From a virus (lineage: Duplodnaviria > Heunggongvirae > Uroviricota > Caudoviricetes): 6,439 bases of DNA. Positions within the stretch are counted from its first letter, which is position 1. Each line of letters begins with the position of its first letter. Of the stretch, positions 3,081 through 4,490 are shown piece by piece. Position numbers and translations under genes: made by a program. The stretch lies in the IMG/VR virus record IMGVR_UViG_2695420565_000002. The stretch is one strand, 5' to 3'. Under the pieces are notes generated by a model. The model saw only the letters and a program-made list of their open reading frames with translations, searched no databases and had not been told where the DNA came from.

Positions 3081-3167
3081 ATGGAAGAAGAATTTGAAGA
3101 GTTCGAAGAGCATCCGCAGGATGTGATGGAACAATACCAGGACTATCCGTATGACTACGACTATTGA
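3081..3167 (+). CDS. Highly acidic 28-aa peptide (lambda orf28 equivalent)
   Basis: GAGGTG SD 4 nt upstream of ATG 3081; MEEEFEEFEEHPQDVMEQYQDYPYDYDY; overlaps the ral start by 17 nt in another frame; same position as lambda orf28 upstream of ral. Confidence 0.55.
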   Translation: MEEEFEEFEEHPQDVMEQYQDYPYDYDY

Positions 3168-3351
3168 TACAAATCAATGGTGTGGACAATTCAAGCGATG
3201 CAATGGATGCAAGCTGCAATCGGAATACATGGTTAAGCCTGAAGAAATGTTTCCTGTAATGGAAGATGGGAAATATGTCGATAAATGGGCAATACGAACG
3301 ACGGCAATGATTGCCAGAGAACTTGGTAAACAGAATAACAAGGCTGCCTGA
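3151..3351 (+). CDS. ral: Restriction alleviation protein Ral
   Basis: 66 aa MTTTIDTNQWCGQFKRCNGCKLQSEYMVKPEEMFPVMEDGKYVDKWAIRTTAMIARELGKQNNKAA, nearly identical to lambda Ral as recalled. Confidence 0.92.
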   Translation: MTTTIDTNQWCGQFKRCNGCKLQSEYMVKPEEMFPVMEDGKYVDKWAIRTTAMIARELGKQNNKAA

Positions 3352-3390
3352 TGGTGGCCTTTATTTTTGGCATAAACAACAGAGGATAAC

Positions 3391-3687
3391 ATGGAATTTA
3401 AAGGTACTGAAGGCAAGTGGGAAATAATGATGGATGGCGATGAGATTAAAATAATCCAGGCAGACTCACTTGAAAATGGCGCAGGCTGGCGTTCGTATAT
3501 TGCAATCTGTGAGGAAGTTCAATGTATTGAAGATGCCAATCTAATAGCGGCAGCACCTGACCTTCTCGAAGCACTTCAGTTATTACTTAAGCAATCCAAA
3601 AATAGAACAACGACAACATATCCAGAATGGTATGGAGCTGTTAATAAAGGTCTTGCAGCAATCAGCAAGGCTCTGGGAGGTGAATGA
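3391..3687 (+). CDS. Hypothetical protein (98 aa), early-left operon
   Basis: AGAGGA SD 4 nt upstream; protein-like composition; stop overlaps the next start (ATGA). No family recognised. Confidence 0.7.
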   Translation: MEFKGTEGKWEIMMDGDEIKIIQADSLENGAGWRSYIAICEEVQCIEDANLIAAAPDLLEALQLLLKQSKNRTTTTYPEWYGAVNKGLAAISKALGGE

Positions 3688-3887
3688 TGTGCGAGTTTTA
3701 TGAAGCAGATATCAAACGCCCAGAAATGGCAAGTGATGCGACATTACGTGATTACTTCGCGGCAAAGGCTATGCAAGCAATGATTAGCAATCCATCGATT
3801 ATCGATAATGATTCTGATGGAGTTGTTAATTATGCAGCAAGCGCTGCATATAAGTTTGCAGACGCAATGCTCAAAGCTCGCGAATAA
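3684..3887 (+). CDS. Hypothetical protein (67 aa; 66 aa if starting at ATG 3687)
   Basis: GGGAGG SD at 3675..3680; ATGA overlap with the upstream gene; MMCEFYEADIKRPEMASDATLRDYFAAKAMQAM...; no family recognised. Confidence 0.65.
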   Translation: MMCEFYEADIKRPEMASDATLRDYFAAKAMQAMISNPSIIDNDSDGVVNYAASAAYKFADAMLKARE

Positions 3888-3892
3888 GCACT

Positions 3893-3920
3893 GTGTATTC
3901 ATTCCAACGAGTGAATACAC
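3893..3920 (+). other. Strong RNA hairpin without U-tract (12-bp stem GTGTATTCATTC / GAGTGAATACAC, loop CAAC)
   Basis: Stem seen directly in sequence, 5 nt after the stop of the 67-aa gene; not followed by a T-run, so not a typical intrinsic terminator. Confidence 0.5.
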
Positions 3921-3982
3921 GGAGCAATGTCGCTCGTAACTAAACAGGAGCCGACTTGTTCTGATTATTGGAAATCTTCTTT

Positions 3983-4010
3983 GCCCTCCGATGTGGGGGG
4001 CCTTTTTATA
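3983..4010 (+). terminator. Rho-independent terminator within the early-left operon, upstream of the cIII-like gene
   Basis: GCCCTCC-gatgt-GGGGGGC (7 bp, one G-U) followed by CTTTTTATA. Confidence 0.6.
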
Positions 4011-4073
4011 TGCATACCAATAACGCTTCACTCGAGGCGTTTTCGTTATGCAATCAAACAGAAGGAGCATCCT

Positions 4074-4244
4074 ATGCAACAGTTCGCTATTGCAGGGGCG
4101 GCATCGGTTCGCCCTTTCAACCCGATTTTATCGGTACAGCATTCACGAAAAAACATTTTAACCGGAGCAGACTTTAAACAACCAAGAATGAAAAGTTTGC
4201 TCGAAAAGCTTTGGGATATTTTGAAACAACAAGGCCGTCCATGA
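4074..4244 (+). CDS. CIII-like protein (56 aa), putative FtsH/HflB inhibitor
   Basis: GAAGGAG SD 6 nt upstream of ATG 4074; N-terminus MQQFAIAG and C-terminus SLLEKLWDILKQQGRP resemble lambda CIII (MQYAIAG...RLIDILNQPGVP, recalled); the central region differs. The longer track ORF from 3927 would span the terminator and is not used. Confidence 0.5.
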   Translation: MQQFAIAGAASVRPFNPILSVQHSRKNILTGADFKQPRMKSLLEKLWDILKQQGRP

Positions 4245-4411
4245 GTTTTACAGATAACTGGTCAGACGAAGAATTCATTCGTCAGATGAAAGAATTAATC
4301 GGTAACGAAGGAGATATTCATGTCACTTGCAACCACAGTGAAGGAGAGCAAGTTACAGAGACGCATGTACACGCAGCAGGCGTTAATGTATCGCCAGAAG
4401 GGAGATCGTGA
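4241..4411 (+). CDS. Hypothetical small acidic protein (56 aa), start overlaps cIII-like stop (ATGA)
   Basis: MSFTDNWSDEEFIRQMKELIGNEGDIH...; weak SD; C-terminal half looks less protein-like; overlaps an alternative-frame ORF with a much better SD. Confidence 0.4.
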   Translation: MSFTDNWSDEEFIRQMKELIGNEGDIHVTCNHSEGEQVTETHVHAAGVNVSPEGRS

Positions 4412-4490
4412 AGGTGTTCGCGTATTTTTAAATGCGGCAAAGACTGAAGTATTAAATCAGCGTTATTTCCTTGGGCCATGTCCATTCTGA
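4320..4490 (+). CDS. Hypothetical small protein (56 aa) in alternative frame, not in the ORF track
   Basis: AAGGAG SD at 4308..4313, 6-nt spacer, ATG 4320; MSLATTVKESKLQRRMYTQQALMYRQKGDREGVRVFLNAAKTEVLNQRYFLGPCPF; ends 8 nt before the SSAP start. Sits where lambda has kil/gam. Confidence 0.45.
   Translation: MSLATTVKESKLQRRMYTQQALMYRQKGDREGVRVFLNAAKTEVLNQRYFLGPCPF

Follow-up and report, generated by a model that had tools for sequence, protein, structure and literature searches.

A predicted small RNA gene orthologous to lambda PreS in the gap upstream of cIII in a lambdoid phage

What does a lambdoid phage keep in 186 bp between two early genes? In the 6,439-nt stretch of Caudoviricetes DNA analyzed here (IMG/VR record IMGVR_UViG_2695420565_000002; hereafter, the window), a gap of this size, 3888 to 4073, separates the stop codon of a small open reading frame (ORF) at 3887 from the ATG codon of cIII at 4074. 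The original prediction, made from the DNA letters, had read this gap as a non-coding spacer in which a hairpin is followed by an intrinsic terminator, and had suggested that a small RNA (sRNA) might be excised from it in the manner of DicF of the Qin prophage; any such RNA, it held, would be new. The boundaries of the gap and both structures proved to be as described: the hairpin occupies 3893 to 3920, comprises 12 base pairs, and has no U-tract after it, and the terminator begins at 3983, with a stem formed by 3983-3989 and 3995-4001 and a tail that reaches 4008. The supposed novelty did not survive. Because every feature of the lambda sRNA PreS (LPR1) that can be compared in sequence is found in the gap, the element is already known: on this comparison, the gap holds the phage copy of the published PreS gene.

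The operon and the gap upstream of cIII

The window carries cII, cI, N, ral, cIII, erf, and ssb in the lambda order, together with nutL, and its plus strand carries a lambdoid early-left (PL) operon. Two genes lie on the minus strand, O (60-560) and cII (743-1024); nutR (1101-1132) is on the strand opposite to nutL. The gene for a cI-like repressor is found on the plus strand within 1305-2126. It is followed on the same strand by nutL (2320-2350), which consists of a boxA-like sequence (GGCTCTTA, 2320-2327) and a boxB (2336-2350) that is an exact copy of the lambda boxB, and then by a lambda-type N gene (2549-2881; Pfam N36, E value of 1.6e-26) and ral (3151-3351). Next come two genes of unknown function, orf98 (3391-3687; XkdD/Y8K6 family by its RefSeq name) and orf67 (3684-3887, 67 aa; PHROG 2201, E value of 1e-18). 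After the gap, cIII (4074-4244, 56 aa; PHROG 550 CIII, E value of 1e-22) is preceded by the Shine-Dalgarno sequence AAGGAG at 4062-4067 and followed on the plus strand by two small ORFs, erf, and ssb. Since the operon contains both nutL and a lambda-type N, PL transcription through 3888-4073 would be N-antiterminated. The gap had been singled out as the one long interval in a tightly packed operon; in fact, the N-ral and cI-N intervals, of 269 and 422 bp, respectively, are also long. In an E. coli prophage that is 99.3% identical, RefSeq has the same 56-aa start of cIII and leaves the gap without annotation.

Elsewhere in the window, a bidirectional terminator-like hairpin (AACCCGAC...GTCGGGTT; 2157-2178, both strands) directly follows the repressor gene, on the upstream side of PL. 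On the plus strand, 706-785 is likely to encode a homologue of oop RNA, antisense to the 3' end of cII. This candidate has a CATAAT hexamer resembling a -10 element at 706-711, a start region (GTAGATTGATCCAG) that resembles the 5' end of lambda oop, and, at 745-777, a strong terminator of 14 pairs, with TTTCTTTT after it; it has no match in Rfam. Two plus-strand ORFs of 56 aa each are found 3' of cIII (4241-4411 and 4320-4490); they overlap by 92 nt in different frames, and both match PHROG families labelled "recombinase". Probably, the start of one of them has been mis-set; otherwise, the overlap is real.

The gap as a whole folds with a z score of -6.5. In addition to the hairpin and the terminator, it contains a second terminator-like hairpin with a T-run (4022-4041), which the original prediction overlooked. 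This structure belongs to the cIII leader (4009-4073, plus strand), a region homologous to the lambda ea10-cIII spacer that includes the Shine-Dalgarno sequence. The leader forms a nested hairpin of -16.9 kcal/mol, with an outer stem (4012-4017/4045-4051), an inner stem (4022-4029/4034-4041), and then the T-run. The match to the lambda spacer extends over 4011-4073, and the part at 4022-4041 corresponds to the lambda sequence just upstream of cIII; this hairpin may be the equivalent of lambda tL2b. A literature search on tL2a yielded nothing but unrelated work in chemistry and physics. As in the lambda tL2 cluster, intrinsic terminators that N-modified polymerase would pass are located between ral and the recombination genes, but here ea10 is missing and the PreS terminator is therefore separated from the cIII-leader hairpin by 35 nt. 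The alternative offered along with the original prediction, that the terminator is simply one that N-modified transcription reads through, fits the locus well: the GC-rich hairpin and its U-run have a lambda-type N gene and an exact nutL boxB upstream and cIII and further genes downstream. This interpretation and the sRNA interpretation are compatible, and both hold.

A different view of the gap would be that it encodes protein, either an N-terminal extension of cIII or some other small product. An ORF that starts with ATG at 3927 is indeed open in frame into cIII (3927-4244, 105 aa), and some deposited records have coding sequences (CDSs) here, such as a 91-aa "putative cIII" in mEpX1 and the hypothetical proteins annotated for VT2-Sakai and YYZ-2008. 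However, the extension (3927-4073) has no PHROG match; the PreS bodies that adjoin a cIII leader are 86, 87, or 88 nt long, so that indels of 1 to 2 nt in the terminator break the frame; in lambda, ea10 lies between the two halves; and the cIII called by RefSeq has 56 aa. For these reasons, the ORF from ATG 3927 was rejected as coding. Two other candidates, a minus-strand ORF (3744-4079) and a plus-strand ORF with a TTG start (3968-4177), were rejected as well, neither having a match to any family. The gap is almost certainly non-coding, as had been predicted, and we give the coding alternative hardly any credence. The annotated genes that run over PreS in deposited phages (mEpX1, positions 2582-2857 of locus L001, as well as YYZ-2008 and VT2-Sakai; hits H57, H78, and H84) are an observation in their own right. 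The mEpX1 protein starts at a TTG codon inside the PreS seed, and its extension, owing to a 1-nt terminator indel, lies in a different frame of the window. Such CDSs across PreS are probably mis-annotations.

Correspondence with lambda PreS

The sRNA LPR1, renamed PreS, was described in 2024 as a transcript that is encoded between ral and ea10 of lambda and ends at tL2a (Silverman et al., bioRxiv 10.1101/2024.10.31.621285). On Northern blots it gives bands of ~88 and ~68 nt, the shorter one being a processed form, and it is strongly enriched with Hfq; it belongs to the lytic cycle only, being absent from lysogens and seen within 10 minutes of induction (10.1101/2024.10.31.621285). Lambda PreS activates translation of dnaN by opening its ribosome-binding site, which raises the level of DnaN, the sliding clamp, and it represses alaS; compensatory mutations bore out both effects (10.1101/2024.10.31.621285). 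Deletion of the seed or of the full PreS lowers spontaneous phage release, as measured by plaque counts, 2- to 4-fold, and PreS deletions result in less lambda DNA after UV induction; PreS supports lytic replication (10.1101/2024.10.31.621285). These reported phenotypes are modest. The preprint contains no mapped PreS 5' end and names no nuclease; we took the lambda 5' end from the band size and the cloning primers. When the literature was searched for older accounts of the ral-ea10 region, only strain constructions came up, and two papers of 2025-26 dealing with sRNAs of prophages (PLoS Pathog e1014486 and the Pas sRNA preprint) mention none of cIII, ea10, PreS, or dnaN.

Among the phage genomes searched, hundreds of lambdoid phages show homology that begins exactly at position 3888. 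On the PL-sense strand, the lambda sequence between ral and ea10 and the segment 3888-3989 are 100% identical. With the ends of lambda LPR1 set by the cloning and in vitro T7 primers of Table S5 of the preprint (88 nt, from GAGCAATG to GATTTTTTA), the counterpart of lambda 34011->33924 is a predicted RNA of 87 nt encoded at 3922-4008 on the plus strand. Its segment 3922-3989 is identical to nucleotides 1 to 68 of LPR1, the whole seed included; only in the loop, the 3' arm, and the tail of the terminator do the two RNAs differ. The minimum free energy fold of the 87-nt RNA agrees with that of lambda; the full-length form has a predicted 5' stem-loop (3922-3961), in which the first 6 nt pair with UUGUUC of the seed. 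The seed region spans 3957-3983, with dnaN-complementary blocks at 3957-3967 and 3971-3983. As placed from primers P838/839, P888/889, and P970/971, the block that defines the lambda delta-seed mutant (TGTTCTGATTATTGGAA) is at 3957-3973/4, and the M1 and M2 triplets are CTG at 3961-3963 and GAA at 3971-3973; the block and both triplets are identical to those of lambda. Going by size, the short (~68-nt) form would begin near 3942.

The predicted 3' end of PreS is the terminator at 3983-4008 (plus strand), the equivalent of lambda tL2a, which ranked second window-wide in the terminator scan. Like its lambda counterpart, it is a GC-rich hairpin with a U-tail. Its 7-bp stem is combined with the loop GATGT, the 3' arm GGGGGGC, and the tail CTTTTTA, whereas lambda has AGTGTG, GAGGGC, and GATTTTTTA, respectively; the calculated stabilities are -13.5 kcal/mol here versus -12.9 kcal/mol in lambda, and other terminator alleles in relatives retain the pairing. 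The tail of the window copy has 5 U residues (CCUUUUUA) versus 6 in lambda (GAUUUUUUA), which could weaken termination or Hfq binding. A stable plus-strand RNA of about 90 to 120 nt ending near 4007 had been anticipated for this interval; it corresponds to the RNA documented experimentally in lambda (88 nt, ending at tL2a), to which the window copy is identical through the seed.

The location in the PL operon corresponds as well, the order being N, ral, the two inserted ORFs, PreS, and cIII. PreS is thus encoded on the same strand of the same operon as in lambda and has the same upstream hairpin, but two extra genes precede it after ral, and its 3' neighbor is the cIII leader instead of ea10. 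Even this layout has a precedent: Table S4 of the preprint includes NC_031946.1 (10.1101/2024.10.31.621285), and we find the same PreS-cIII arrangement there, with 97.6% identity.

Very probably, then, the gap is the lambda ral-ea10 region fused to a cIII leader, which gives a PreS orthologue acting on dnaN and alaS to the benefit of lytic replication, and we infer that the present phage makes the RNA. Upon loss of the repressor, PL transcripts with N would cross the gap, and the part from 3922 to the terminator would accumulate as an sRNA of ~87 nt that binds Hfq through its U-tail and terminator hairpin and is probably trimmed to ~67 nt. The single-stranded seed would base-pair with the final dnaA codons, immediately ahead of dnaN, and this pairing would open the dnaN ribosome-binding site, leading to more sliding clamp; alaS would be repressed. 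The net effect would favor phage DNA replication in lytic growth. Read-through transcripts would express cIII, kil, and the recombination genes, with cIII being expressed only through passage of both terminators.

An Rfam scan of the whole window at E values of up to 1 gave no match, including to DicF, in agreement with the earlier impression that the sequence is unrelated to that sRNA; Rfam has no existing PreS model. The two RNAs would still have much in common, as prophage sRNAs that are cut from an operon transcript, end at a terminator, and act on host mRNAs in an Hfq-dependent manner. They differ in sequence and structure and in their targets, which are ftsZ and others for DicF versus dnaN and alaS for PreS; moreover, the RNase III and RNase E steps are established for DicF, whereas for PreS they are hypothetical. 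AgvB and AsxR of the lambdoid prophages of enterohemorrhagic E. coli are also Hfq-bound but, unlike PreS, are encoded at the moron site downstream of PR' and not in the PL operon. An identity with AgvB, AsxR, or EcOnc was rejected on account of this PR' moron site; the PreS seed is also absent from the supplementary files of the AgvB/AsxR paper.

Pairing with the host dnaA-dnaN junction and distribution of PreS

The dnaA-dnaN junction was rebuilt from the primers of the preprint and confirmed in 5417 of 5426 E. coli genomes. The PreS seed shows an antisense match to this junction at 28 of 31 nt; the antisense alignment score is 40, compared with 17.3+-3.3 in shuffled sequences, and 0 of 2000 shuffles reach it. 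These results rely on antisense alignment and on duplexes restricted to the seed; RNAduplex runs on the entire length of PreS and dnaN were set aside, since they ignore intramolecular structure and therefore over-extend.

Beyond the short seed match, the middle part of PreS (3957-3983) is a collinear antisense copy of the dnaA-dnaN junction (locus L128, about 1201-1281), and the resemblance raises the possibility that PreS arose by inverse capture of this host segment. The target itself varies among E. coli strains: the dnaA 3' end has GATTTTTCAAAT versus GATTTCTCTAAT (about 238-300 of locus L130 and 1201-1260 of L128), and the 81-nt target site is only 95 to 99% identical in 1733 of the 5417 genomes; the second dnaA allele has a slightly longer contiguous match to the seed.

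A divergent form of PreS is encoded upstream of cIII in the P22-like Salmonella phages g341c, SEN22, UPF_BP1, and phage L (at 701-805, 701-806, and 542-645 of the retrieved g341c, SEN22, and UPF_BP1 loci, respectively). Like the E. coli type, it precedes cIII, has a hairpin that abuts +1 and a terminator at its 3' end, and is antisense to the dnaA-dnaN junction; the 19 nt at the 5' end are also shared. It differs in its length of 102 to 107 nt, its seed (TCGTTCTGGTTAATCGAAAAATCATCCCTTGAT), and its terminator stem (GCCGC.../...GCGGC). The middle part of this RNA has a collinear antisense match of ~45 nt to the junction, with the Salmonella target represented by one genome, that of Salmonella enterica subsp. 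diarizonae (L182, about 238-300), and it matches the Salmonella-specific synonymous bases of dnaA (TCGAAAAATC versus GATTTTTCGA and ACGACGAC versus GTCGTCGT). The Salmonella type scores 52 on the Salmonella junction, with a duplex of -44.9 kcal/mol, versus 39 and -33.0 kcal/mol on the E. coli junction. For the E. coli type, the scores are about equal on both hosts: 41 (-29.8 kcal/mol) on the E. coli junction and 44 (-30.4 kcal/mol) on that of Salmonella. With one Salmonella genome as the source of the target, this pattern provides independent evolutionary support for the view that pairing with dnaN is the selected function of the PreS family. The host-matched Salmonella type is not found in the preprint, which required at least 92% identity in BLAST, a threshold too strict to retrieve it (10.1101/2024.10.31.621285), and constitutes a modest addition to that work.

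PreS is widespread. Its region is matched by 385 phage records, and positions 3380-4250 of the window are matched in 2245 of 5426 complete E. coli genomes (about 40%); the full arrangement of the window occurs in 12 of the 2245, strain YZ3-11 being one of them. The PreS 5' motif retrieved 117 loci; what comes after the PreS body is a cIII leader in 47, an ea10-like gene in 38, and some other gene in 32, which makes the ea10-less PreS-cIII layout the commonest one in this sample. Compared with lambda, two genes have been inserted in the window (about 3385-3887), after the ral terminator and before the hairpin. The PreS module has its left mosaic junction in the last codons of orf67 (GCGAATAA), the cassette ending as GCGAATAA/GCAC, and in other phages GC GAA TAA and then GCAC recur upstream of the hairpin behind unrelated genes. 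A terminator-like hairpin at 3340-3361, conserved with lambda, overlaps the ral stop codon, and the orf98-orf67 cassette comes directly after it.

The hairpin at the PreS 5' end

The upstream hairpin (3891-3922, plus strand) has a core stem formed by 3893-3904 (GTGTATTCATTC) and 3909-3920 (GAGTGAATACAC) around the loop CAAC (3905-3908). One of its 12 pairs is G.U, and the stem can be extended to 14 pairs, which takes in the whole of 3891-3922. Its calculated stability is -17.7 to -18.2 kcal/mol (z score of -6.4), a value equalled by 0 of 200 shuffles. The core ends 1 nt before PreS +1, and a hairpin abuts +1 in 117 of 117 loci; the 35 distinct upstream sequences from these loci all fold into one there, with stabilities of -11 to -18 kcal/mol. 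Four hairpin types with unrelated stem sequences can be distinguished in the 117 loci: the one seen in the window and three others (B, C, and D), with the stems TATAGCAGATT/AGTCTGCTATG, TAATGACCATT/AGTGGTCATTG, and TAATGCGGA/TCCGCATTG in the second, third, and fourth types, respectively. The stem has 12 to 14 bp in the window and 9 to 11 bp in types B to D, and the hairpin types combine freely with different PreS bodies.

Covariation of the hairpin in related phages, a point raised by the original prediction, is pronounced. In an alignment of 11 distinct variants, 8 of the 12 pairs show compensatory (two-sided) changes, and 97.7% of the cells are paired, compared with 22 to 51% in slid controls. 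The covariation score of 0.789 stands against 0.225 in shuffles, of which 0 of 500 reach it. Three apical pairs (A-U, U.G, and U-A) are nearly invariant among these variants. By its compensatory changes, the hairpin is a conserved structured RNA element. It goes unmentioned in the preprint, where the full-deletion primer leaves it in place (10.1101/2024.10.31.621285); its covariation is a modest addition beyond that work. Because of its location at the PreS 5' end and its strong covariation, a role in PreS biogenesis is plausible, and we propose that the hairpin acts as a 5'-end determinant or insulator that would set or protect this end.

How would the 5' end be formed? In a DicF-style scheme, the hairpin at 3893-3920 is a substrate of RNase III, and its cleavage frees the sRNA. 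Such a scheme would account for a covarying hairpin 1 nt before +1 in all 117 loci; in addition, the hairpin can stack on the adjoining 5' stem-loop of PreS, and lambda PL transcripts have other RNase III sites, in the N leader and at sib. However, stems of 12 to 14 bp here and 9 to 11 bp in the other three types amount to approximately one helical turn, whereas classical E. coli substrates of RNase III have about two. They fall short of the ~20 bp typical of the hairpins in lambda sib, T7 R1.1, and the DicF precursor. We consider RNase III cleavage at this site doubtful. An RNase E cut beside a structured clamp and a purely insulating or 3'-protective hairpin are further candidates. PreS could also be a primary transcript from its own promoter overlapping the hairpin. 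Many terminator-linked Hfq sRNAs do have promoters of their own, and a separate promoter would be compatible with the preprint (10.1101/2024.10.31.621285). Against this, the promoter scan found no sigma-70 match upstream of 3922; the -10 position would fall in the 3' arm of the hairpin, which has a wholly different sequence in types B, C, and D; and lambda LPR1, absent in lysogens and present within 10 minutes after induction, behaves as a product of PL. As the 30 nt of upstream sequence have been exchanged as a block in relatives, which retain just the pairing, a promoter at the hairpin is unlikely; with none predicted either, the PreS 5' end probably results from processing of the PL transcript. 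Finally, the gap could be just an attenuator with an mRNA-stabilizing hairpin, the terminated RNA being an inert by-product in this phage. The terminator belongs to the lambda tL2 cluster, which was known long before any sRNA (10.1101/2024.10.31.621285), and its tail, with 5 U residues, is shorter than that of lambda. Such a role would, however, leave unexplained why a 60-nt body is invariant while the terminator loop, the tail, and both flanks vary and why two divergent body types are both antisense to the host dnaA-dnaN junction; we regard it as very improbable.

We thus return to a PreS orthologue processed from the PL transcript as the preferred reading. Beyond it, we suggest tentatively, and with somewhat less than even confidence, that the hairpin is a dedicated and previously undescribed biogenesis element, either an endonuclease guide or an insulator, and that PreS constitutes a family with host-tracking seeds, of which the E. 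coli and Salmonella types are members. This family might have originated by inverse capture of the dnaA-dnaN segment.

The main result of this analysis is a corrected annotation, in which an unannotated gap becomes a published phage sRNA gene. PreS is absent from Rfam and from genome annotation, and in some records it has been mis-called as protein coding. Follow-up of the hairpin and of the Salmonella type would show by which route PreS is excised and whether it is tuned to the dnaN leader of each host.
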